Below, in pieces: positions 17,718 to 57,690 of a DNA stretch of 64,000 nucleotides. Both the position numbers and the translations under genes were made by a program. This DNA is from Dehalococcoidia bacterium (GTDB lineage Bacteria; Chloroflexota; Dehalococcoidia; Lucifugimonadales; UBA3495), in assembly GCA_963665155.2 (NCBI GenBank), contig OY761986.2, forward strand, positions 215,789-279,788, in the 5' to 3' direction. The notes below the pieces were generated by a model. The model had not been told where the DNA came from and did not search any database. It worked only from the letters and a program-made list of their open reading frames with translations. The number at the start of each line of letters is the position of its first letter. Positions within the stretch are counted from its first letter, which is position 1.

Positions 17718-20700
17718 TCACTCAAAGTCCGCCTGCGTCAACCCCCGTGCCTGACTGCCCCAGCAGGCGACGGAGCCGTCCGTCCTCACTCCGCAGGTGT
17801 GGCCATACCCGGCGCTGACGGAGGAGAACTCCCCGGCTGGCGCCCTAGCCTCGTCATACGGGTCATAGCCCCAGCAGGCGACGGAGCCATTCCGCCGCAC
17901 CCCGCATGTGTGGCGAAACCCGGTACTGACGGAGGCGAATTCCCCAGCCGGCGCCGTGACCCGGCCAGACCAGTCATAGCCCCAGCAGGCGACGGTGCCG
18001 TCCCGCCGCACCCCGCAGGTGTGGGAGGACCCGGCACTGACGGAGGCGAACCCCCCGGACGGCGGCGTGGCTTGGCCTTTATTGTCATGGCCCCAGCAGG
18101 CGACGGCGCCGTCCCGCTGCACCCCGCAGGTGTGCCAAAGCCCGGCGCTGACGGAGGCGAATTCCCCGGACGGCGGCGTGGCCTGGCCATGAAAGTCATG
18201 GCCCCAGCAGGCGACGGAACCGTCCCGCCGCACCCCGCAGGTGTGGAAGCTCCCGGCGGTGACCGAGGCGAACTCCCCGGACGGCGGCGTGGCTTGGCCA
18301 GCCCTGTCAGCGCCCCAGCAGGCGACGGAACCGTCCCGCCGCACCCCGCAGGTGTGGAAGCTCCCGGCGGTGACCGAGGCGAACTCCCCGGACGGCGGCG
18401 TGGCCTGGCCAACCACGCTGCGCGTGTCATCGCGATCATCGCCCCAGCAGGCGACGGCGCCGTCCCGCCGCACCCCGCAGGTGTGGTACTCCCCGGCACT
18501 GACCGAGGCGAACTCCCCGGACGGCGGCGTGGCCTGGCCATAATCGCCATCGCCCCAGCAGTCGACGGCGCCGTCCCGCCGCACCCCGCAGGTGTGGATC
18601 CCCCCAGCGCTGACGGAGGCGAACTCCCCGGCCGGCGGCGTGGCCCGACCATCATCACTGTCATTGCCCCAACAGGCGACGGAGCCGTCCCGCCGCACCC
18701 CGCAGGTGTGGATCCCCCCGGCGCTGACGGAGGCGAAGCGTGTCTGCATGCCCTTCACCGCCGGGTCCGCGGCCACCTCAATCCTGATTACGGCGGCGCC
18801 GAATCGTTCTGAGGACTTGCCAAAGTGGGGAGCGATCACAAACCCGTGCCTGATGGCCGAATCCCACTTGAGCGTGTTCCACCCCGCAATGTCATCGCCA
18901 TCGTCCCAAGTGGGGCTTCCCGATGCCCAGTGGGTGGCAGACATTACATGAGCGAGCGAGGTTTCCGCCGCCGCGGCGAATATTATGGCGTAGGTCCCTG
19001 GCTCCATTGGCGCGGTCAGGTTTATCGGAACTTCGTACTCGCTGGTTGCCAATGCCGCCGCCCAACCGTCGATAGTCCAGTAACTACTCTCATGGGGACC
19101 CCAGGACGGGGTTGCTCCCACGGGAAATACTGCATGGGAGCGATGAGCGTTGGTGACCGAAATGATAGCGACTCCCGAAATCGCCTCTCCTGAGGTCACC
19201 GAAATTGTCGGAGGGTCAACAATCAGCGACTGCCCATTAATCCTGCCGCCCAGCAGGCGAATTGCGTCTCCGGTCACCTCTGGCGTTCTGCCGGTGGTGG
19301 TTCCGTTCTGCTTGCCGGGAGCCGGTGCGCCGTAGTATGCGCCGGCGTCTATCACGCCGAACTTACTGAGTGCAGGTTCCAGTTTCAGCGAGAGACTCAA
19401 CGGGCCGTTGTACACCAACGCCTCAATCTTGTTCCATCCGTTGTTTAGTGCCAGCGGTCCGTAACTTGCAGGATCCTCGGCATTGCCTCTCCCGGCAACA
19501 AACTCATCATTAGCATACAGCGCGACCCCATCATCTCCGCTTACGCCCACTTCGTAACTCCCGCTGCCTTCATGGTAGAGCCAGGTCCTAAACCCCACCA
19601 CAGTATTGCCAAACTCAAACTTCCTCCGACCTGTGAGTCTGACCAGGAAGCTCCCATCTTCGACATAACTGTCAAAGGCCCCAAAGTCGGAAATTTGCGG
19701 AATATAGGTGTCGGGATTCTCGTGAACTCCCGGTTTGATGAATCTTTCCCACTGGGAATAATGTGGGTCAAGGGGGGGCAGCTCAAAGTTCTCGACTTGT
19801 ACCGATACTTGCTCCACAATCCAGCCCTGCTGGTCCGTCACCGTTCCGGCATCCGGGTTCCGCGAGCAGTCCGTGTATTCTTCCGCGCAGACCCACCCCC
19901 GAATCAGTATAGGAAACTCTCCGATGAAGCCCGGCGTTATACGCAGCCGCAGCGTCCTGTCGTCCGACATTGACCACGACGGGTCGTCCGATTCCACCAA
20001 GAGGTGTTCGGCAGGGAAGGGCGTCGGCTCTCCCGATTCATCGCGATAGATAGTCGCTCCCGGCTGGTAGAACGTGACGTTCGACAGGCCGGTCGTATAA
20101 TCCAACATTTCCACGTTGGCACGGGAAGACGAATGCATCCTTTCAGAGCCACCGGAATCGGTCAGCGCCGGGAAGGACACGGAAATCCCGCCGTGCTCTC
20201 CCGCTTGTTGGAGGCCGTACATTCGAACGGCGAGGGTGAAGCTGTCGCCGAATTCGACACTGCTCTCCGAAATATCATACTCCAGTTGAGTACCGAGTCT
20301 CGGCGTAGGCTTGATATCGGGATCTACGAGGGATACACCCAGTTTCTCGGCGGCTCGCCTGAGCGCCGCCGCTGCGTTAATTACCCCGGCGCCGGTCCTC
20401 GTTTCCCCGGGCGGGGGCGTAGTGGCGGTTTCGGTGATGATTTCCCGTACCTCCGCCGGACTAAGCGTGAACTCGCCGTTGTGGTCGAAGTCCACGGACC
20501 AGATCAAGGCGGCCAGCCCCGACACTTGGGGTGTGGCGAATGAGGTCCCGAACCAGAGTCTGGAACCATTAACTTGAGCAAACCTGCCCTCAAGAAAGGG
20601 CGAATACCCGACTATTCCCCCGGGGGCGCTGACCTTGATGGACGCTCCATAGCCTCCTTCAAACGTCCCTTTCCCGTTCGCCGTACTGCCGACGGCTATC

Positions 20701-21818
20701 ACGTTCCGATGGTCATCGGCATACCAGGCAGGAAATGCGCCTAAGCTGTACTGTATCTCACGAAGGATTCCATGGTTTGCGCCGGCTGCAACGATCAACA
20801 CGTTGCGTCGGGCAGCTCTCTCGATCACAGGCTCCATACCAGTCAGCCATGCAGTCAGGACAGGCACGCCCGCGCTGACGTTTATCACTTTCGCGTCCAG
20901 ATCAATCGCAGCGTCTATACCCGCAACCACGTTGAAGAGCGCTTGGCCGCCTTTCCACACCTTGACGACTGCCAAAGGCGATTCCCAGGAGACCCCCGTC
21001 ATGCCGTCATTATTGTTGGCCGCGGCAGCGGCCACTCCGGCAACAGCCGTACCATGGTACGCCTGCATCGCTGTTTGCAGGGTGAAGTGTGCCGGGCGAT
21101 CTGGCGAGGTATTCGGTTTCTTCAACTTTGGATTGCCCAGGTCGAATCTCTCCTTTATCTTTGACCTAAGATCGGGGATTTCGTCCACTCCCGTATCTAC
21201 GATTCCGATGATTACCTCTTCCGAACCAGTGTGGATTGCCCATGCCTCCGGCGCCTTGATCTCCTGGAGATATGCCGAGTGGCCGAACCACGGGTCATTG
21301 GGCGGTTGGATGGCGGACTGGGAAAGTTCGGCCTGCGCATTCGGAAAGGCCTCTTCCACTTCCGATAACTGTTCAAGGGGCTCAATGGCCTCTTGTAGCT
21401 CCAGGCCGGCCGGAAGCTCCACCTGGTAAATGCCCACGGATGGGATCTCGCCGACGATTAAGCTTCCCACTTCCTCCAATGCAGTCGAAACCTCGTCTAT
21501 GGTCGTGCCACGTTTGGCTACCACGATCAACTGATCCCCTGCGACAAGCAATCCGGTGTCCTCCCAAGACACCCAGTTGCCGTCGGCCACTGGCTTGGCA
21601 TAGGCCATTCGGTCCGAACGGGAATCCTCCCTCGGAGAGGTTCTCGCTGTCAGAGTTGGAGGGGCAGAAGTTTCCGTTGGCGCCTGCTCTAAGGAATCAC
21701 GCCCAAGGTCCCGTTCTGCGGGTGGTTCGTCTCGAAGGAAGACGTACACCGCCAGAGCAGCGACCGCCGCCAGGATCACGCATCCGATGACTGTGCCGGT
21801 AAGGTTTCTGCGACTCAT
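17718..21818 (-). CDS. membrane-anchored S8 (subtilisin-like) serine peptidase with PA14-like region and ~12 C-terminal RCC1-like repeats
   Basis: TM helix VIGCVILAAVAALAVYVFL. Catalytic motifs are GIVDTGVD, HGTAVAGV and GTSFATPQVSG. The C-terminal repeat is FASVSAG..HTCGVRRDG.V.CWG. ATG at 21818 has GAGAGG upstream; the ORF is open to 21836. Confidence 0.9.
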   Translation of the reverse strand: MSRRNLTGTVIGCVILAAVAALAVYVFLRDEPPAERDLGRDSLEQAPTETSAPPTLTARTSPREDSRSDRMAYAKPVADGNWVSWEDTGLLVAGDQLIVVAKRGTTIDEVSTALEEVGSLIVGEIPSVGIYQVELPAGLELQEAIEPLEQLSEVEEAFPNAQAELSQSAIQPPNDPWFGHSAYLQEIKAPEAWAIHTGSEEVIIGIVDTGVDEIPDLRSKIKERFDLGNPKLKKPNTSPDRPAHFTLQTAMQAYHGTAVAGVAAAAANNNDGMTGVSWESPLAVVKVWKGGQALFNVVAGIDAAIDLDAKVINVSAGVPVLTAWLTGMEPVIERAARRNVLIVAAGANHGILREIQYSLGAFPAWYADDHRNVIAVGSTANGKGTFEGGYGASIKVSAPGGIVGYSPFLEGRFAQVNGSRLWFGTSFATPQVSGLAALIWSVDFDHNGEFTLSPAEVREIITETATTPPPGETRTGAGVINAAAALRRAAEKLGVSLVDPDIKPTPRLGTQLEYDISESSVEFGDSFTLAVRMYGLQQAGEHGGISVSFPALTDSGGSERMHSSSRANVEMLDYTTGLSNVTFYQPGATIYRDESGEPTPFPAEHLLVESDDPSWSMSDDRTLRLRITPGFIGEFPILIRGWVCAEEYTDCSRNPDAGTVTDQQGWIVEQVSVQVENFELPPLDPHYSQWERFIKPGVHENPDTYIPQISDFGAFDSYVEDGSFLVRLTGRRKFEFGNTVVGFRTWLYHEGSGSYEVGVSGDDGVALYANDEFVAGRGNAEDPASYGPLALNNGWNKIEALVYNGPLSLSLKLEPALSKFGVIDAGAYYGAPAPGKQNGTTTGRTPEVTGDAIRLLGGRINGQSLIVDPPTISVTSGEAISGVAIISVTNAHRSHAVFPVGATPSWGPHESSYWTIDGWAAALATSEYEVPINLTAPMEPGTYAIIFAAAAETSLAHVMSATHWASGSPTWDDGDDIAGWNTLKWDSAIRHGFVIAPHFGKSSERFGAAVIRIEVAADPAVKGMQTRFASVSAGGIHTCGVRRDGSVACWGNDSDDGRATPPAGEFASVSAGGIHTCGVRRDGAVDCWGDGDYGQATPPSGEFASVSAGEYHTCGVRRDGAVACWGDDRDDTRSVVGQATPPSGEFASVTAGSFHTCGVRRDGSVACWGADRAGQATPPSGEFASVTAGSFHTCGVRRDGSVACWGHDFHGQATPPSGEFASVSAGLWHTCGVQRDGAVACWGHDNKGQATPPSGGFASVSAGSSHTCGVRRDGTVACWGYDWSGRVTAPAGEFASVSTGFRHTCGVRRNGSVACWGYDPYDEARAPAGEFSSVSAGYGHTCGVRTDGSVACWGSQARGLTQADFE

Positions 21819-22128
21819 GGATATGACCTCTCTCACTTGGCTAAGCAGTTAGCAGGCAGACGCGATCGGGACACTACGACGCCTGCCCTCTTTAAGCTGC
21901 ATCAAGTAACCCTCTCTCTAAAGCTTCAGAAACCAGTCGCGTCGGCATGTGGCTGTGCCGGCGGACGCCGACCCCATCCGCGATTGCGTGCGCAACGATG
22001 AGAGAGGCGGAAGACTTGGCCCTACGGCGGCAGGCTGGAAGTCGCGAGTGTTGACCAACAACCGACACTTGGTACACACCCTCCTTGCTTGACCTGTGTA
22101 ACCTTTACGTTCCAGCATTTCCGGCGGC

Positions 22129-22422
22129 TTATCTCCAACCCCAACAGGCGACGGCGCCGTCCACCTGCACCCCGCAGGTGTGGCTCCGCCCGGCGCTGAC
22201 CGAGGCGAATTCCCCGGCCGGCGGCGTGGCCTCGCCATAATAGTCACTGCCCCAGCAGGCGACGGCGCCGTCCACCTGCACCCCGCAGGCGTGCCAAGAC
22301 CCGGCGCTGACCGAGGCGAATTCCCAAGGCGACGGCGTGGCCTGGCCATCCGCGTCGCCCAACCGGATATTCTTTTCGTGTCCAACGAGCGGTCCGGCAT
22401 CATCACCGACGCAAACATACAA
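22129..22422 (-). pseudogene. orphan fragment with two RCC1-like repeats
   Basis: EFASVSAGSWHACGVQVDGAVACWG appears twice. There is no peptidase or other domain and no convincing start. Confidence 0.55.
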
Positions 22423-48258: not shown

Positions 48259-49726
48259 CCTAGTATTACAACGTCAGTTAGTTTGATAGGATGACTGTGT
48301 AGCTGGAGAGGGAATAGGCGGGTGAGGTGGGGATGTGGATGCGGCAGCTTTCGAGCAGGTGTACGGGTCATTTCGGGATTTTCACGCTTACTTCGCGCCG
48401 CTGTTTGGCCGCCGGGAGACGCGGGAGCACAGCGGTCATTATCTCCAGGCCCTGCTGGTACAGTCTGGGGAGCGGCGCAACGCTGAGAACCTGTCGGAGA
48501 CGGTTCCGGGGTCAGCCCGAGGGATGCAGCGGTTTCTCACCGATTCTCCCTGGGACGATGAGGTGATTATAGGACGGCTGCAGGAGTACCTGGGAACCCG
48601 GCTGGAGCATCCGGAAGGGGTGTGGGTGCTGGACGGCAGCGACTTTCCCAAGCAGGGGAGGAAGTCGGTGGGAGTGGCCCGGCAGTACTGCGGGAGGCTG
48701 GGGAAGGTGGCCAACTGCCAGGCGGGGATGTTCCTGGCCTATGTCAGCCCGTTGGGACGGGCATTGGTGGACAAGGGGCTGTATCTGCCCGAGAGTTGGA
48801 CCTCGGACAAAGACCGGTGTGAGGCGGCGGGTGTGCCGGAGGATAGGCAGGGCTACCGGTCCAAGACGGAGTTGGCCTTGGAGATGGTGGGGCGGGCACA
48901 GGAGCGGGGCCACCTGAAGGCTGGATGGGTCGCGGCGGACGACGCCTTCGGGATGTCGCCGTCCTTCCGGGAGGGCCTGGCGGCCTTGGGGATGTGGTAC
49001 GTGCTGGACGTTCCGTCCGGCTTTACGGTGTGGCCGCCGGAGCCTGCCTGGACCAGTGCGGAGTATCAGGGATTCGGGCGTCCCCGCAAACCCAGGCTGC
49101 GAGACGGTCAGCGCCGGACCATGGAGCAGCGCAGCGACGAGTTGCCGGAGGAGGCCTGGCGTGAGATTACGGTGGCCGAGGGAAGCCAGGGGCCACGCAG
49201 CTACCTTTTCAGCGCCCAGAGGGTGCGACCGACCAGCAGGCGCAAGCCCGGCGAAATCCACTGGGCCGTCTACCGCCGGAACCGGGACGGCAGCGAACCC
49301 CGCTACTACCTGTCCAATGCTCCGGAGGATACCCCGTTGGAGACCCTGGCATACGTGGGAGGCTCCCGTTGGCGTATAGAAACGGAGTTTGAGACGGAGA
49401 AAAGCGACGTAGGCCTGGACGAGTACGAGACCCGCACCTGGGCTGGCTGGCATCACCACGTGGCCCTGTGCCTGCTGGGCGGAGCTTTTCTGCTGAGCCT
49501 GCAACAGGCTTGGGGGGAAAAAGATGCCCCGGATCACGAGGCCGCAGGTCTACCGGGTGGTGCGGGAAATGCTGCCCCGGGAACGGTTCGGGCCAACCGA
49601 GTTGCTGCGGTGGCTTGAGGATACGCAGGACAGTAACGAACGGGCCAAACGCTCCCATGCCAAGCGCCGCGCCGCCATGCGGGCATCACCCCACATCCCT
49701 CCCTGAACTGACGTTGTAATACTAGG
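48259..49726 (+). mobile_element. IS701-family insertion sequence (1468 bp) with 21-bp perfect terminal inverted repeats
   Basis: IRL is CCTAGTATTACAACGTCAGTT (48259-48279). IRR is its exact reverse complement (49706-49726). Confidence 0.9.
48335..49706 (+). CDS. IS701-family DDE transposase, frameshifted near 49512-49523
   Basis: GRRETREHSGHYLQALL..., RWRIETEFETEKSDVGLDEYETRTWAGWHHH. The C-terminus (MPRITRPQVYRVVREML...) is in another frame after the G6A5 run. Confidence 0.85.
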
Positions 49727-49883: not shown

Positions 49884-50816
49884 ATGCGAATTGGATTAAT
49901 TTCCGGCGCTAGTCGCGAACCTGTCACCCTATCCGAGCAAGTGGAGCAGGCCGTAATGGCCGAAGCCGAAGGATTTGACTCCATTTGGTTCCCGCAACTC
50001 CCAACCTTCGGTTTCGACGCTCTTACGGTGATCGCATTGGCCGGAGGGAAGACTGAGCGAATTGAATTTGGAACTGCGGTCTTACCGACCTTCCCTACGC
50101 ATCCTCTGACCATGGCCAAACAAGCGTTAACCGCTCAGGTGGCCTGCGATGGGCGCCTGACTCTGGGCCTCGGCCTCTCCCATCAGCCAATGATCGAAGA
50201 TGTGATGGGTCTTTCCTACGAGAAGCCTGCAGCTCACATGCGAGAATACCTGGCGGTCACCAAGGCTCTGATCAATGACGGGCAGGTTGATTTTGACGGT
50301 CGGTTCTTCCGGGTAAAAGCCGAACTTACGGTTAGTGAGGCGACACCCGTTCCCATTGTAATCGCTGCGCTGGCGCCTAGGATGCTGCGGATGGCTGGCG
50401 AACTTGTGGATGGCACGGCAACCTGGATGGCGGGGGTAAAAACGGTGGGGGACCATGTCGCTCCCCGGATACAAGCCGCCGCCCAGTCAGCGGGTAAAAC
50501 CCCGGCCAGGGTTATCGTAGGACTGCCGTTGGCGGTGACCGATGACCCTCAGGGCGCCAGGGATGTCGCCGCTCGGGTCTTCGAGCGTTACGGCCAGTTG
50601 ACCAACTACCGCAGGCTCTTGGACATTGAAGGAGTTGAAGGGCCTTCCGAGGTTACGGTGGTTGGCGACGAACTCCATGTGGAACAGCAGCTTAAGGCTT
50701 TTGCCAGCGCTGGTGCTACCGAATTTATGGCCTCGGTTATGCCCGTCGGGAATGACGCCCAAGAGTCCGTCGCCCGGACCAAGCGCTTGTTGGCGAGCTT
50801 GGTGGGAAAACTTTAG
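49884..50816 (+). CDS. LLM-class F420-dependent oxidoreductase
   Basis: GGAGAT RBS. GFDSIWFPQ..., LTLGLGLSHQP. Confidence 0.85.
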   Translation: MRIGLISGASREPVTLSEQVEQAVMAEAEGFDSIWFPQLPTFGFDALTVIALAGGKTERIEFGTAVLPTFPTHPLTMAKQALTAQVACDGRLTLGLGLSHQPMIEDVMGLSYEKPAAHMREYLAVTKALINDGQVDFDGRFFRVKAELTVSEATPVPIVIAALAPRMLRMAGELVDGTATWMAGVKTVGDHVAPRIQAAAQSAGKTPARVIVGLPLAVTDDPQGARDVAARVFERYGQLTNYRRLLDIEGVEGPSEVTVVGDELHVEQQLKAFASAGATEFMASVMPVGNDAQESVARTKRLLASLVGKL

Positions 50817-50839: not shown

Positions 50840-51590
50840 TTACTTGGCCGTGAATCCACCGTCGACAATTAGCTCGGTGCCGGTAATGTAGGATGCCTCG
50901 TCCGATGCCAGGAAAAGCACGGCGTTGGCTACCTCTTCCGGCTGGCCATCTCGGCCCATGGGTATGGAGTCCATCATTGCTTCCCTGGCGCTGTCTCCCC
51001 GCTGGAAAGACGTGAGCATCGGCGGCATGATGCCGGGGTGGACCGAGTTGACCCTGATGCCCTCCTTGGCGTGTTGGACGGCAGCGGCCTTGGTGACCAG
51101 CCGGACCGCTCCCTTTGAAGCGTTGTAGCCAGGATGGACTGCTTCTTGGCCCACGAAACCGGAGATTGAGGATATGTTGACGATGGATCCGCCGCCAACC
51201 GTCCGCATCTCCGGGACAGCGTATTTCATGCCAAGAAAGACTCGCTTGGCGTTGATGTTGAGCAGCCGGTCCCAAGCTTCGGTGCTGGTGTGGTCCTTTT
51301 CGCCGCTGCCGCTGATGCCAGCGTTGTTGACCAGGATATCCAGCTTGCCGAACTGGGCCACCACTTGGGCCCACCGCCTTCTCCCATTGGTCCTCTTGGG
51401 AAACGTCCAAAGCCACGAAAATGGCCTCGCCACCGGTGTCGGTGATCTCTGCCTCCAACCTGCGGCTGTCTTCCTCTCGTACGTCGGCGATGACCACCTT
51501 GGCTCCTTCTTGAGCGAACAATTTAGCCTCGGCGGCACCCATCCCGTGGGCTGCGCCGGTGATTAGAGCAACCTTGCCTGTTAGCCTCAT
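50840..51590 (-). CDS. SDR-family oxidoreductase, frameshifted at 51367-51372
   Basis: The N-terminus TGAAHGMG (51590 frame) and NNAG...YNASKGAV...PGIM (50840 frame) join as ...QWEKAV|AQVVAQFGKLDILVNNAG if one G is removed from GGGCCC. Confidence 0.85.
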
Positions 51591-51651: not shown

Positions 51652-52872
51652 TCAAAGTACGATACCGTCGTCGACCCACGCCGTTAGTTCCTTAGTAGAT
51701 GCACCGAGCAAACCTTGGAGCACGTATTGGTTGTGCTGGCCCAGTAATGGGCTGGCTGAGCGTATGGTGGCGGGGGTTTCGCTGAGTACCCAAGGCGGAC
51801 CCTGAACTTTTTGACGGCCCAGAACCGGGTGCTCCACTTCCCTCCAAGCCTCACGGGCAATCAGGTGAGGATCCGAGGCCAGGGCTTCCCCGTTCATCGA
51901 GGGCGAGGCAGCGACGCTGGCTGATTGTAGCAGTTGGGCTGCTTCATCGGGAGTTTTGGCTTGAGTCCATATTTGAATCAGCGAGTCGAGAGCCTCCCCG
52001 TTCTGATGGCGAAGCGAGCGATCCTTGAATCGAGGGTCCGCGCTCCATTCGAGGTGGTCTGCGGCCTGGCAAAACGCTTCCCATTCCGCATCGGTGGATA
52101 CGGCGATGGTTACCCAAGCATCTCGGCCTTTGCACGGGTAGCACCCATGAGGCGCCATCACTGGGTGTTGATTTCCCTGGCGGTGGGCGATGGCCCCATT
52201 CATAGCGAAGTCCATGAGAGCTTCCCCGGTGAACATGGCTATGGATTCCCGCGAGGAAATATCTATAAATTGCCCTTCCCCGGTGCGCAGACGATGGAAG
52301 AGACCGCTCAAGATTGAAAATGCCGCCGTTGCGCCCACCCGGCAATCTATGCTGTCGTGTAACTCCGCCGGGGGTCCATCTGGGTAACCCGTCAGGTGGC
52401 CCAAACCGGATAGAGCATTGAAAGCCGGGGCATAACCGGGGTAGGAACTCTCGGGCCCGGTCCCTCCCGCGCCGGTGATGGATGCGAATACCAGAGTTGG
52501 ATTGATCCGGCGTAGCGTTTGATAACCTAGGCCCAAGCGGTCCATCACGCCGGGCCGCATGTTCTCCACCACTGCGTCGCTTATTCCCACCAAGCCATGG
52601 ACCAATCTGATGGCTTCCGGTTGCTTGAGGTTCACCTGAACGCTGAACTTGTCGAGATTAATAGTATTGAAGACGGGCGAACCGTCGGAGTCGTCGTAGG
52701 CGTAAGGCGGGCGCCGGGCGGCATCGAGCTGAGCTTCGCTCTCTATTTTGATGACCTCCGCGCCCAACAAGGCCAGCATCAAAGAAGGAAACGGCCCGGC
52801 CAAGAGGTTTGTCAGGTCCAACACTCGGACACCCCAAAGAGCGGGTCGAGGTTCGGAAGGGCTCGTCGTCAT
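51652..52872 (-). CDS. CaiB/BaiF-family (type III) CoA-transferase
   Basis: VRVLDLTNLLAGPF...LGAEVIKIE. 406 aa. Confidence 0.9.
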   Translation of the reverse strand: MTTSPSEPRPALWGVRVLDLTNLLAGPFPSLMLALLGAEVIKIESEAQLDAARRPPYAYDDSDGSPVFNTINLDKFSVQVNLKQPEAIRLVHGLVGISDAVVENMRPGVMDRLGLGYQTLRRINPTLVFASITGAGGTGPESSYPGYAPAFNALSGLGHLTGYPDGPPAELHDSIDCRVGATAAFSILSGLFHRLRTGEGQFIDISSRESIAMFTGEALMDFAMNGAIAHRQGNQHPVMAPHGCYPCKGRDAWVTIAVSTDAEWEAFCQAADHLEWSADPRFKDRSLRHQNGEALDSLIQIWTQAKTPDEAAQLLQSASVAASPSMNGEALASDPHLIAREAWREVEHPVLGRQKVQGPPWVLSETPATIRSASPLLGQHNQYVLQGLLGASTKELTAWVDDGIVL

Positions 52873-53175
52873 CAGACCACACCCGCCTTTAAGAGATCGG
52901 CCAATTCTCTCCGGAGGGCGGTTCGTAGGAGATTGTGAATGTTAGTCATCAAACCACACCCGCCTTTTTCAGATTGGCCAATTCTCCCCGGAGGGCGGTT
53001 CGTAGGGGATTGTGAATGTTGGTCATCAAACCACACCCGCCTTTTTCAGATTGGCCAATTCTCCCCGGAGGGCGGTTCGTAGGGGATTGTGAATGTTGGT
53101 CATCAGACCACACCCGCCTTTTGCAGATTGGCCAATTTTCCCTGAAGAGTGGTTCATAGGGGATTGTGAATGTTA
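52868..53175. repeat. 77-bp tandem repeat, 4 full copies (a fifth partial copy runs into the 3' end of 53180-54394)
   Basis: GTCATCA starts at 52868, 52945, 53022, 53099 and 53176, an exact period of 77. Copies 2 and 3 are identical. Confidence 0.95.
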
Positions 53176-53179
53176 GTCA

Positions 53180-54394
53180 TCAAACCACACCCGCCTTTTG
53201 CAGATTGGCCAATTCTAATGGAAGCAGGCCCAACTCTCCGCAGAAGATTTCCTCGTTGTGCTGACCCAACAATGGCGCTGGCTGGGGGGTCTCTTCCGCC
53301 ATACCGGAAAATCGGTAGGGACGTATCGGGTAAGAAAGCTCTCCGGCTTGGGGATGGACCACTGCCCGGAAGAAACGGCGTGCCTGCAGTTGTGGCGACC
53401 TATGAAGGTCGCGGGAGTCGGCATATAACCCCACCGGGCAACCGCTGGGGGCTACCTGGGAATAGATCTCATCTTTGCCCAGAGTCTCGGTCCACCGGGA
53501 AATCATAGAATTGACTTCACCGGCGTTCTGGATGCGGGCAGCCCGGTTCAAGAATCGCTCATCATCGGCCATTTCCGGTTGGCTCATGATCTCTACCAAG
53601 GCTCGCCATTGACGGTCTTCTCGGGGGTAGAGCATTACGTAGCCGTCACGGCAGGGGAAAATGCCGCCGTAGACGTAGCTGCGGGTCCGGCCGACAACTT
53701 GGCCTTCGGCGTCAGCCTGAGCCAACATGAGGCGGTTGAGGCCGAAGGTGGCTTCCTGTTTGGAAACGTCCACATGCTGGCCCACTCCCCAGACTTCCCT
53801 GGCGTAGAGGGCAGCGACGGTGCCGGAAGCGGCTATAGTTCCAGCGTCGTACTCGCCAAGATGAGTCCCAGCGGCCACGGGAGGCCGGTCGGGGAACCTG
53901 GAATGAGTAGCGCCGCCGGGCAGGGTGTAACCCTCACCCGAGGCGTGGAAAGTGTTGATGTGATGGGCCTTCCATTTAGACTGTGGACCGAATTGGCCGT
54001 ATGGCGTAACCGAGACGTAGACTAAAGCCGGATTGATTTCATGAAGTTGTGGGAAGCTCAGGCCCAAGACTTCCATTTGTCCGGGAGTCGAGTCTTCAAT
54101 TAGAACGTCGGCTATGGCCGCCAGCTTGAGGAACAACTCTTTGCCCATGGGTGTAGACGGGTCGAGGGTGATGCTGCGCTTGTTCAGGCTCAGGTGTAGA
54201 AAAAGTCCGCTTTTCTCCGGGTGAGGATTATTCTCCGGAAAGGGGCCGAAGTTCCGGGCCGGGTCGCCCGTCCCAGGGGGCTCAATTTTGATCACGTCCG
54301 CCCCCAAGTCCGCCAGCAGCTTCCCGCAGTACGGTCCGGCGGCGAACCCGGCGTACTCCAGTACCTTAATTCCCTTGAACGGAGAAGACACCAA
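53180..54394 (-). CDS. CaiB/BaiF-family CoA-transferase
   Basis: IKVLEYAGFAAGPYCGKLLADLGADVIKIE. 404 aa. Confidence 0.9.
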   Translation of the reverse strand: MVSSPFKGIKVLEYAGFAAGPYCGKLLADLGADVIKIEPPGTGDPARNFGPFPENNPHPEKSGLFLHLSLNKRSITLDPSTPMGKELFLKLAAIADVLIEDSTPGQMEVLGLSFPQLHEINPALVYVSVTPYGQFGPQSKWKAHHINTFHASGEGYTLPGGATHSRFPDRPPVAAGTHLGEYDAGTIAASGTVAALYAREVWGVGQHVDVSKQEATFGLNRLMLAQADAEGQVVGRTRSYVYGGIFPCRDGYVMLYPREDRQWRALVEIMSQPEMADDERFLNRAARIQNAGEVNSMISRWTETLGKDEIYSQVAPSGCPVGLYADSRDLHRSPQLQARRFFRAVVHPQAGELSYPIRPYRFSGMAEETPQPAPLLGQHNEEIFCGELGLLPLELANLQKAGVV

Positions 54395-54437: not shown

Positions 54438-55685
54438 CTAAATCACCCCCTTGTCCCTAAGGGACTCGATCTCATCCCACGAGTAACCTGCGTCCAGCAG
54501 GACTTCCTCGGTATGCTGCCCCAGTTCGGGCGCGCCGCTTCGCACCTCCGGCTGGAGCCCGCTATAGGAGACCGGGAACCCGATGGTCTTGGTCTTGCCA
54601 AAGACTTCGTGGTCGTAATCAAACACAAATCCGTTGGCGGCTATCTGGGGGTCGAGTGGGATATCCTGGACGCTGTTGACGGGAGCGCAAATCAGGCCTT
54701 TTTCACGGCAAAGGGGTAGCCACTCGTCCCGGCTCTTTGTGGCTGTGGCCCTGTCGATAATTTCTATCAGTTGTTCGCAATGCTCGGCCCGGTTTCGCGT
54801 GGAGTTAAAATCCGGGTTGGACTCTACTTCATCTCCTAGGCCCAATACCTGGCAGAAATCGTGCCAGGATTGTTGGGGCCGGTTGATGGAGAACATGATC
54901 CACTGACCGTCGGCGCATGGGTACCAACCTACCAGTGGATTAAAGACCTTGGTTCGTGTGGGCCGCTTGGGCATCCGCCCGCCCATCAAGTAGATGTTGA
55001 AGGGCATGGCGTTTAGGTGTACCAGCGCTCCCAATAGTGATGCTTCCACTCGTTGGCCCTCTCCGGTCTTTTCCCTCCAGTAGAGAGCGCCGGTGACTGC
55101 TTGGACTAGCATTGTCGCACCCAACTGGTCGGCCGCTCCGGGAGTCATGTACTGCGGTGGGTCGCCTTCCTGGCCGATGAGGTGCATCATTCCGGACCAA
55201 GCGAAGGCCACGTTATCGAAAGAGCGCTCATCCGAGGAAGGTCCGTTTTCTCCGTATCCGCTGGCAACGGCGTAGATCAGACGGGGGTTCTCCAGGGCCA
55301 AATGCTCGTAGTCCAAGCCCAAGTTTTGCCTCACCACCCTTCGGTGGTTGGTAATCAGCACATCGGCCCCGGCGACCAGCTTCTTGAACAACTCCTGGCC
55401 TTCCGGGGATTTCAGGTTCAAGGTGATGGAGCGTTTGTTGCGGTTGGCCCCTTCGAACAAGACGTTGCGGCCCCCCGGCAACTCCAGAGAGACTCCCATG
55501 ATGCTGCGCCAAGTGCGGGCAATGTCCCCGTCAGGGTCCTCGACCTTCACGACATCGGCGCCCAAGTCGCCCAGCATATAGCCGGTGGCCGCGCCGTGGT
55601 GCGCTTGGGTCCAGTCGATGACTTTTATCCCGTCCAGTAGGTTGGGCAAGGTAGGGCCTCGTTGCCACTGAGGCCGGAAGGGCAC
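54438..55685 (-). CDS. CaiB/BaiF-family CoA-transferase
   Basis: IKVIDWTQAHHGAATGYMLGDLGADVVKVE. 415 aa. Confidence 0.9.
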   Translation of the reverse strand: MPFRPQWQRGPTLPNLLDGIKVIDWTQAHHGAATGYMLGDLGADVVKVEDPDGDIARTWRSIMGVSLELPGGRNVLFEGANRNKRSITLNLKSPEGQELFKKLVAGADVLITNHRRVVRQNLGLDYEHLALENPRLIYAVASGYGENGPSSDERSFDNVAFAWSGMMHLIGQEGDPPQYMTPGAADQLGATMLVQAVTGALYWREKTGEGQRVEASLLGALVHLNAMPFNIYLMGGRMPKRPTRTKVFNPLVGWYPCADGQWIMFSINRPQQSWHDFCQVLGLGDEVESNPDFNSTRNRAEHCEQLIEIIDRATATKSRDEWLPLCREKGLICAPVNSVQDIPLDPQIAANGFVFDYDHEVFGKTKTIGFPVSYSGLQPEVRSGAPELGQHTEEVLLDAGYSWDEIESLRDKGVI

Positions 55686-55787
55686 CGGGAAATGAAAAAG
55701 CTCCGAGCCTCCGCAGTCTAGTGGCCATCTAGGTATTCGCGCCTGTGTTAGGATAACCCAACGTAGCGAGACAAGCTATCAGTAATT

Positions 55788-55934
55788 AGCTATCAGCGAT
55801 CAGCCGTCAGCTTTCAGAAATGAGGCGGTTTAGGCTGAGCGGGCACATGGCTGGATTGGATGGCCTCGGGAAGGCTCAGGAAGGCTCGGATGGTAGGGCG
55901 CCAATCAAAAGCTGACCGCTGATTGCTGATAGCT
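55788..55934. repeat. 27-bp imperfect inverted repeat flanking 93 bp in a divergent intergenic region
   Basis: AGCTATCAGCGATCAGCCGTCAGCTTT (55788-55814) pairs with AAAGCTGACCGCTGATTGCTGATAGCT (55908-55934), 25/27 complementary. Confidence 0.8.
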
Positions 55935-55962
55935 GACAGCTAAAAACTCTGGAGGTTTTTTT

Positions 55963-56944: not shown

Positions 56945-57016
56945 TTAGGTGCTATCTTACGTCAAGCCGGCTTGAGTGTTCGGAGCTTTGTCGATGCAGC
57001 CGAGGAGATCTTGTGA
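56945..57016 (+). pseudogene. possible hicA toxin remnant (C-terminal ~23 codons only)
   Basis: LGAILRQAGLSVRSFVDAAEEIL* resembles a HicA C-terminus. Its TGA overlaps the hicB ATG. The frame is closed by TAA at 56909 with no start. Confidence 0.3.
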
Positions 57017-57282
57017 TGGAAAAGCGAAAAGTCACGGTGATTCTATTTCCTGGAGAAGATAGCGGCTATGTAGCGTACATGCCCCTGTTTCCTAGTTGCA
57101 CCACACAAGGGGAAACTGTCGAGGAAACCTTGCGAAATGCGAAAGAATCGTTGGAGCTAGCCCTAGAAGAAGCTACTGACACGGACCTAGAATGCCTGGA
57201 CTATTCGCACGCGAGGCACATCGTGCTGGGCGAAGTGGAGGTGGAGGTTTCGGGCCAGGTCAGGATATCCGCTAACCGGTAG
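57013..57282 (+). CDS. hicB: HicB-family antitoxin
   Basis: VTVILFPGEDSGYVAYMPLFPSCTTQGETVEETLRNAKESLELALEE, a typical HicB N-terminal fold. Confidence 0.75.
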   Translation: MMEKRKVTVILFPGEDSGYVAYMPLFPSCTTQGETVEETLRNAKESLELALEEATDTDLECLDYSHARHIVLGEVEVEVSGQVRISANR

Positions 57283-57420
57283 GGGGTTGCCAACTACACA
57301 TCTTCCACGTTTTCGCTCACGCCCCACATACAGGATATCTTTGAGATATAGTCCAGGTAAGACCGCTGGGGTCTCACACCTTCACCACTTCAGCCAGTAT
57401 ACGCTTACCAATATCCTGTT

Positions 57421-57690
57421 TTAGCGCGTTTTCATCACTAGATCCACATTTACGCCAAGAATAGTAGTTAAGTAGCGTTCTAGCCGCACGAACTCAAACA
57501 TGGTGGGCGTCTGGCTGAATTCCACCATTAGGTCGATATCGCTGCTTCGATTACTCTCACCCTTGGCATAAGAGCCAAATACGCCCAAAGTCTTGACCCC
57601 ATAATTCTCCGTAATGGCTGGAAGAACGCCTTTAAGGGCACAACGGATTTCTTCCAACGTGATCCGGATATGTGGGCCTCTTTTAGTCAC
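57421..57690 (-). CDS. nucleotidyltransferase-domain protein (MNT-type antitoxin)
   Basis: GVFGSYAKGESNRSSDIDLMVEF (GS...DxD motif). 89 aa. Confidence 0.8.
   Translation of the reverse strand: MTKRGPHIRITLEEIRCALKGVLPAITENYGVKTLGVFGSYAKGESNRSSDIDLMVEFSQTPTMFEFVRLERYLTTILGVNVDLVMKTR

Follow-up and report, generated by a model that had tools for sequence, protein, structure and literature searches.

A strain-specific 77-nt tandem array at the junction of two CoA-transferase genes in a Dehalococcoidia bacterium

A tandem array of 77-nt units was examined on the minus strand of contig OY761986.2 from an uncultured marine SAR202 strain, a Dehalococcoidia bacterium (assembly GCA_963665155.2), where it separates two family III CoA-transferase genes, an upstream one called A and a downstream one called B. 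The whole stretch of DNA that was analysed, 64,000 nt in length, is referred to as the window, and positions are those of the window unless another contig is named. The array is a strain-specific, derived amplification of a conserved coupled junction between these genes, and a repeat at the A/B junction was found in 0 of >25 related SAR202/Dehalococcoidia loci. It is probably a junction-derived minisatellite, i.e., a variable number tandem repeat (VNTR), which is tolerated, and the short open reading frames (mini-ORFs) in its units would be by-products rather than a new peptide or regulatory system.

The anatomy of the array was established by direct reading of the minus strand and with Tandem Repeats Finder (TRF), which reported a 77-nt tandem repeat at 52868-53216 with 4.5 copies, 93 % matches, no indels and a score of 572. 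Four mini-ORFs are chained on the minus strand between genes A and B. The ATGs of the units lie at 53180, 53103, 53026 and 52949, the ATG of gene B follows at 52872, and TGATG, a 1-nt stop/start overlap, is present at all five boundaries of the array. Gene A ends in ...GAATTGGCCAATCTGCAAAAGGCGGGTGTGGTTTGA, and the last A of its stop codon is the A of the ATG at 53180. The coordinates and translations in a preliminary description of this DNA, made from the letters alone, were confirmed by the minus-strand reading and by TRF. The parts of the array are listed below.

Tail0, 53181..53216, minus strand: last 35-36 nt of gene A, a half copy that opens the array; 53216 is the TRF boundary.
Unit 1, 53104..53180, minus strand: 9/77 differences from unit 2; mini-ORF cut at codon 9; same sequence in the sister assemblies L001 and L002.
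Unit 2, 53027..53103, minus strand: central copy with an intact 25-codon mini-ORF.
Unit 3, 52950..53026, minus strand: identical to unit 2; one additional copy on the JGI contig L002.
Unit 4, 52873..52949, minus strand: 8/77 differences from unit 2; mini-ORF variant.

Unit 1 is translated as MTNIHNPL*TTLQGKLANLQKAGVV, with the TGA of codon 9 at 53154-53156. The mini-ORF of units 2 and 3 reads MTNIHNPLRTALRGELANLKKAGVV, and that of unit 4 reads MTNIHNLLRTALRRELADLLKAGVV. Tail0 is 97 % identical to positions 42-77 of the unit, and every unit derives its tail half from it; the tail of unit 4 is the sequence directly upstream of gene B. A 40-mer probe for the tail/start junction and a 42-mer probe for the head matched inside the array only, and 0 matches were found in 100 dinucleotide shuffles.

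In each unit, a 14-codon B-type N-terminus (the head) is joined in frame with the final 11 codons and the stop codon of A (the tail). The tail of the central units differs from A's own tail at 1/35 nt (~97 % identity), and homologous tails (ELAGLRRAGVV and similar) are present in all A orthologues compared. The heads of B orthologues comprise 14 residues of the form M-[TAG]-x6-[RK]-x-A-L-x-G ahead of a conserved VRVLDL. The head peptide of the repeat, MTNIHNPLRTALRG, is encoded by the 42-mer ATGACCAACATTCACAATCCCCTACGAACCGCCCTCCGGGGA; it keeps all six conserved B-head residues (M1, T2, R9, A11, L12 and G14) and is 9/14 identical to the head of the Io17-Chloro-G4 orthologue. Given these retained residues, the repeat head would have worked as a B head until recently. 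The joint between head and tail, where …CGGGGA meets GAATTGG…, has at most 2 nt of microhomology with resident sequences, which is consistent with an illegitimate join. Recombination between the 3' ends of two paralogues, as suggested in the preliminary description, does not match this composition, since the unit combines the 3' end of A with a B-type 5' end and the 3' end of B is uninvolved.

The derived state of the array was established by comparison with relatives at increasing identity. In ~18 GTDB species in which protein A is 55-77 % identical, the A/B junction is mostly a 1-nt or 4-nt overlap. A 1-nt overlap was found in six metagenome contigs and one NCBI metagenome-assembled genome (MAG) in which protein A is 77-82 % identical. 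The two closest loci, L159 and L160, are ~90 % identical in DNA and have a 4-nt overlap, with the junction GTTTGACGACG and no repeat. The forms in most relatives are 1 nt (TAATG, TGATG, TAGTG) or 4 nt (ATGA, TTGA), with the exceptions of a short spacer in L101 and L106 and a junction that was not resolved in L097, L098 and L104. The conserved -1/-4 overlap is read as a signature of translational coupling. The amplification of a gene junction proposed in the preliminary description was borne out by the single, mostly overlapping junction of the relatives, and the comparison of related genomes that it advised yielded the >25 loci without the repeat by which the array is recognized as derived. 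Moreover, no other junction array was found by TRF in the ~1 Mb of fetched loci.

Other changes were observed around the same junction. In L159, ~880 additional bases lie between genes C (the transferase gene upstream of A) and A (L159 4123-5001), with small ORFs of 142 and 50 aa. The C-terminus of A in L159 is locally rewritten (L159 6150-6215), reading …PRSDFFSLQKAGVV vs …LPLELANLQKAGVV in the window. Furthermore, gene B of L159 has a TTG start and a 4-nt overlap, and that of the window has an ATG and a 1-nt overlap. The A/B junction region seems to be unusually changeable in this lineage. In L104, where A is 59 % identical, the B orthologue apparently carries a 40-residue proline-rich N-terminal extension after an overlapping start (L104 4248-4370), which is another way of lengthening the junction.

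The copy number of the units differed between assemblies. The window and L001 (ENA) each have 4 units, and L002 (JGI) has 5. Over 13.2 kb, the window and L001 differ by 11 mismatches and a single 7-nt indel (99.86 % identity), and they contain the same four units. The flanks of L002 are identical to those of L001 over 3.2 kb, and its fifth unit repeats the identical central one once more. Protein B was also found on a 2.4-Mb contig. The homogenized centre and the 10-12 % diverged edge units form the typical minisatellite pattern of concerted evolution. The Jukes-Cantor (JC) distance between units is 0.11-0.16, and the synonymous divergence (dS) between the window and L159 is 0.30-0.32 for genes C, A and B. 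On these values, the first amplification would be roughly half as old as the L159 split. The array would be younger than the split because the JC distance of the units is at most 0.16 vs a dS of ~0.31, in agreement with its absence from L159. Alternatively, the L159 lineage may have lost the array through a clean tail-to-tail deletion.

The following sequence of events is proposed for the origin of the array. In the ancestral state, the stop codon of A would have overlapped the start codon of B by 1 nt (TGATG), as is typical of coupled heteromeric subunits. A single illegitimate in-frame join would then have placed a B-type 5' end of 14 codons before a duplicate of A's final 35 nt. In the favoured scenario, the recombining DNA came from a diverged relative; the conserved A tail would have served as the anchor, the other end would have been joined illegitimately, and the order tail-head'-tail-head(B) would have resulted. 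Unequal crossing-over or replication slippage between the 35-nt tails may subsequently have altered the copy number. Such changes are possible because the array starts and ends with the same 35-nt tail, and a scarless deletion is equally possible. The edge units would have drifted apart while the central units remained identical and continued to vary (4 vs 5). The array may have been tolerated because every unit ends in the native A tail, so that B would keep its native upstream 35 nt and its stop/start overlap. The mini-ORFs would be a geometric by-product of an in-frame duplication of head and tail rather than selected peptides. As a consequence, the hand-over of ribosomes from A to B may be weakened, and it would already be interrupted by the nonsense codon of unit 1. 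B would rely on initiation at the ribosome-binding sites of the units and of B itself, together with short-range reinitiation from unit 4. The physiological effect is likely to be, at most, a shift in the B:A ratio.

Several observations weigh against this account. The difference between 4 and 5 units may partly be an assembly ambiguity of the identical central units, as the JGI contig is only 3.3 kb in length. The persistence of the array through ~12 % divergence between units indicates that it is not strongly deleterious. The number of variable columns is 2/37 in the core around the stop/start and 12/40 elsewhere (Fisher p = 0.007, with a post hoc partition), and this depleted variation is a weak hint that the initiation regions may be constrained. 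The foreign head is the one real puzzle of the array. Gene B has its own head, MTTSPSEPRPALWG, which is the resident orthologous head and matches the ~90 % relative L159 at 39/42 nt. The repeat head differs from it at 20/42 nt (JC 0.76, over double the dS between the window and L159) and does not appear to be a copy of it; with such a difference, a plain in situ tandem duplication would fail to explain the founding event. As the divergence seems too great for drift in place and the conserved residues were kept, the head must presumably have been supplied by another allele, lineage or paralogue. No donor of the head was found in 160 fetched loci or in the viral contigs, plasmids and phages searched. 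A chimeric query of the repeat head and the conserved B N-terminus returned 2 candidates only, neither with the repeat head, and a scan of metagenome contigs with protein A returned only relatives of at most 45 % identity, which were uninformative on the junction.

Other sources of the mismatch between head and flanks were rejected. Drift of a resident B head copied in situ is contradicted by the JC of 0.76, as the dS is 0.31 for the relative in which the resident head also occurs, and by the six conserved residues. Import of B from a distant lineage was discarded because the best-match identities of A and B are similar (82 % and 84 %), as are their dS values to L159. The 3' end of A differs locally from that of L159 (ELAN vs SDFFS), but according to the outgroups the ancestral form is that of the window and the form in L159 is derived, so import of this end was not retained.

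The origin of the array was also weighed against two other readings. According to one, a single junction was expanded by the assembler, and this is highly improbable. The identity of the central units and the count of 4 or 5 units between assemblies would fit such an artefact, and the homopolymer-type frameshift in the neighbouring short-chain dehydrogenase (SDR) gene could be a long-read error. Unit 1, units 2 and 3, and unit 4 have three distinct sequences with 8-11 pairwise differences, and hence at least three units must exist in real DNA. Furthermore, the array is present in three assemblies from ENA, NCBI and JGI sources, 4 units are present on each of two large contigs (0.55 Mb and 2.4 Mb), and the head sequence is nowhere else in the window or the fetched loci to be mis-joined. 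The other reading, in which a third CoA-transferase gene X once lay between A and B and left the array as its remnant, is very unlikely. An in-frame internal deletion would have fused the first 14 and last 11 codons of X, and the product would then have been amplified. This would account for a head that is unlike that of resident B and yet has all six conserved residues, and SAR202 genomes contain dozens of CaiB/BaiF-type transferase paralogues (PMC5395668). The gene order C-A-B-SDR is constant from 55 % to 90 % identity, with no fourth gene separating A and B in any relative. A 97 % A-like tail would be unexpected for a paralogue with a 48 % diverged head, and the time since the L159 split (dS 0.31) is short for such a history.

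A functional role of the units was considered in two forms. In the first, the array is a selected relay or spacer similar to mycobacterial interspersed repetitive units (MIRUs), in which the mini-ORFs pass terminating ribosomes along the TGATG overlaps, coupling is kept or tuned over 308-385 nt, and the B:A ratio follows from the number of units. Short gene overlaps are enriched among the subunits of heteromeric complexes, and in E. coli the final 15 nt of an upstream gene are enough for termination-reinitiation (PMC10666635). The sequence prerequisites for this process are present, namely the -1 overlap and 15 nt or more from the 3' end of the upstream gene, of which each unit carries 35 nt. 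The translational-coupling relay of the preliminary description is favoured by the TGATG kept at all five boundaries; open frames are kept in units 2 to 4, the core around the stop/start is the less variable part of the unit, purifying selection on B persists, and MIRUs provide a precedent. The relay nevertheless seems to be broken at its first link. The nonsense codon of unit 1 occurs in all three assemblies and leaves 50 nt before the next ATG, whereas gaps of ~20 nt almost abolish termination-reinitiation in experimental work (PMC10666635). Moreover, the relatives (>25 loci examined, most overlapping) have a direct overlap and none needs a relay. The preliminary description had pointed to intact ORFs and coupling signals in three or four copies, which it would not expect of random slippage debris. 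The open frames and the TGATG overlaps were inherited from one founder unit and are not independent observations: the prior chance of an in-frame founding fusion was 1 in 3, the fusion happened once, and the copies inherited its frame. The 14 variable columns between units fall 6/3/5 on codon positions 1/2/3, and ~0.8 new stops would be expected among 17 substitutions (an estimate from counts), with 1 observed in unit 1. A selected relay is therefore unlikely on this evidence.

In the second form, the 25-aa peptides themselves would be functional, as a small-peptide array or as leader or precursor peptides. Such a role would be in keeping with the three or four 25-codon ORFs that are intact, as each possesses a start and is preceded by a G-rich stretch, and the point estimates of pN/pS (non-synonymous to synonymous polymorphism) are below 1, at 0.34-0.60 (3-4 synonymous and 4-7 non-synonymous changes). 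They are not significantly below 1 (Fisher p = 0.21), so that the synonymous bias for which the preliminary description had advised a test did not appear, and the differences between units show no coding constraint. Radical changes separate the copies (P>L, G>R and K>L), in addition to the nonsense codon. The peptide is merely the N-terminus of a B protein joined to the C-terminus of A, no homologue was found with the chimeric head query, and none of the relatives has it, not even the 90 % one. A functional small protein would be expected to show purifying selection and conservation, and neither a signal of the former nor conservation beyond one strain was found; the small-peptide array of the preliminary description lost its support on these grounds. 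Its leader-peptide regulator fared no better, as the array has no terminator or antiterminator structure and no Rfam family, the peptide is lacking in all relatives, and there are no maturation genes nearby. Functional peptides are thus extremely improbable. A structured RNA element was also rejected (fold z-score -1.6, with 6/100 shuffles folding as well; no Rfam match at E ≤ 1), and no promoter or terminator was found in the array in a scan limited to sigma-70-type consensus sites.

The array was compared with known systems. Its nearest counterparts are the MIRUs, which are tandem units of 40-100 bp. M. tuberculosis H37Rv has them at 41 loci, most of these between operon genes, and differential translation within polycistronic operons is among their proposed roles (PMC2734929, PMC3635867). 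In the senX3-regX3 spacer, which has promoter activity, there are two or three units of 77 bp, accompanied in some cases by one of 53 bp (PMC4213456). A MIRU ORF is coupled to its downstream gene by a -4 nt overlap, which likely eases insertion with minimal impact on expression (PMC12548453). In view of these 77-bp units and this coupled ORF (PMC12548453, PMC4213456), the claim of the preliminary description that no equivalent had been described does not hold. The present array shares with MIRUs the tandem 77-nt units between co-directional operon genes, and a unit ORF that is linked by a stop/start overlap to the downstream gene, here by -1 nt (TGATG) and in MIRUs by -4 nt. No promoter or terminator lies between A and B. 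Its copy number differs between strains (4 vs 5, in identical central units and on a 3.3-kb contig), and in related species the two genes concerned are only a few bases apart. MIRU ORFs that overlap both flanking genes were reportedly described by Supply et al. in 1997, a detail for which the Brown & Wade review is a further source.

The differences from MIRUs are equally clear. MIRUs are interspersed and thought to be mobile, whereas the present unit occurs at one locus only among the 64-kb window, 160 fetched loci and the viral, plasmid and phage collections. MIRU descriptions set the repeat apart from its flanks, to which its sequence is unrelated, whereas the present unit consists of an A tail and a B-type head. 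In addition, the array belongs to another phylum, Chloroflexota (SAR202), and has no promoter-like site, in contrast to the activity reported for the senX3-regX3 MIRUs. Hence, it is MIRU-like in architecture and is not a member of the MIRU family. That both have units of 77 nt is coincidental, as the length here results from 14 + 12 codons minus the shared base. It is unlikely that the array is a snapshot of the birth of a MIRU-like repeat in which only in-frame, coupling-preserving units survive and form a heritable, reversible dial on B:A stoichiometry. Ordinary minisatellites or VNTRs resemble the array in their constant head-to-tail period, identical centre and diverged edges, in a copy number that varies between near-identical strains, and in sister lineages without the array. 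The present unit differs from them in that it spans an overlapping stop/start, each copy regenerating a start-ORF-stop module, and in that its head half is not copied from the current sequence of the adjacent gene. The likeness to coupled overlapping gene pairs lies in the -1/-4 overlap of A and B in most relatives and the -1 overlap at each repeat boundary (PMC10666635). Such pairs have one junction each, whereas five are chained here via non-conserved mini-ORFs, with one link broken.

The genes around the array are listed below.

Gene C, 54438..55649, minus strand: first of three tandem family III CoA-transferase genes; PF02515 4.6e-108.
Gene A, 53180..54391 (54394 from TTG), minus strand: family III CoA-transferase, 403 aa; PF02515 3.7e-91.
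Gene B, 51652..52872, minus strand: family III CoA-transferase, 406 aa; PF02515 2.2e-103, full profile coverage.
SDR gene, 50843..51590, minus strand: downstream of B in the same conserved cluster and outside the repeat; +1 frameshift near 51370.

Gene C has 403 aa as called on the sister contig L001, and the mechanical ORF reaches 55685. The protein of gene A ends in ...ELANLQKAGVV* and is identical to P0001. All three transferases are full-length PF02515 (CoA_transf_3) proteins with a pairwise identity of only ~30 %. The preliminary description had called the flanking genes paralogous, which agrees with their common family, and had envisaged recent recombination between their 3' ends, which does not; because A and B are only 30 % identical, they would be ancient rather than recent paralogues. 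In NCBIfam, A, B and C belong to no defined equivalog and score far below every equivalog cut-off. Distant B-like relatives carry the JGI label 'BbsF subunit'. From this label and the conserved -1/-4 overlap, we infer that A and B may form a heteromeric transferase. The benzylsuccinate CoA-transferase genes bbsE and bbsF are similar in being adjacent, ~30 % identical and both of PF02515, and in the BbsF label of B-like relatives; A and B differ from them in their low NCBIfam scores. SmtA/SmtB of Chloroflexus is a heteromeric family III CoA-transferase encoded by adjacent paralogous genes.

The gene cluster consists of an abhydrolase, C-A-B, one or more SDR genes and a luciferase-like monooxygenase, and it is kept in relatives. 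The best matches of the A and B proteins are SAR202/Dehalococcoidia MAGs, and the cluster fits the paralogue-rich oxidative gene sets reported for SAR202 (PMC5395668). The dN/dS values against L159 are 0.17 for A and 0.15 for B (0.07-0.17 across C, A and B), which suggests that A and B are still under purifying selection and that B is no more relaxed than A. In the SDR gene, tblastn found two frames joined at 51370-51372 (residues 1-73 and 74-249). An extra base lies in a GGGCCC run when compared with L003, and the gene is intact, with 249 aa, in L003, L005 and L159. The break must also exist in the sister assembly L001. The split gene is either a real pseudogene or a homopolymer error common to long-read assemblies.

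Further features were observed outside the array. A DDE_5-family transposase ORF of 427 aa at 48335-49618 (plus strand) adjoins the luciferase-like monooxygenase gene (49884-50816) and marks an insertion sequence near the CoA-transferase cluster. Two mutually inverted arrays of a degenerate heptamer (AGCTGAT/ATCAGCT type), at 55774-55817 and 55910-55941, lie on either side of the intergenic region from which the abhydrolase gene and gene C diverge. Compared with L001, the window has an additional 7-nt unit there, and these arrays look like a second small VNTR or operator-like repeats. Upstream of the cluster, at L001 1190-1864 (~57000-57690 of the window), nucleotidyltransferase (NTP_transf_2/Polbeta) and HicB-like antitoxin genes are present; relatives have an NTP_transf_2 and HepT-like pair at the matching place, a module of toxin-antitoxin type. 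Tandem repeats of 111 nt occur at 17757-18737 (8.6 copies) and 22139-22349 (1.9 copies). They were attributed to a 1372-aa ORF (17718-21836, minus strand) with a subtilase S8 domain and nine RCC1 repeats, i.e., to ordinary protein-domain repeats, and the second array lies in a neighbouring 166-aa ORF without a Pfam match.

If the proposed origin is true, the array would be a clean natural case of a coupled overlapping junction that was amplified without loss of the operon, each copy regenerating the native initiation context of B. It would be a locally derived counterpart to the mycobacterial MIRUs. The natural allelic series of 0, 4 and 5 units would be suited to gauging the reach of a termination-reinitiation relay via mini-ORFs. 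For annotation, the array shows that chained 25-codon ORFs at a gene junction need not be genes. For SAR202 metabolism, no consequence is evident beyond a possible change in the ratio of the CoA-transferase subunits. The value of the array would be that of a natural model of how translational coupling is relayed and of how ORF-carrying intergenic repeats arise.

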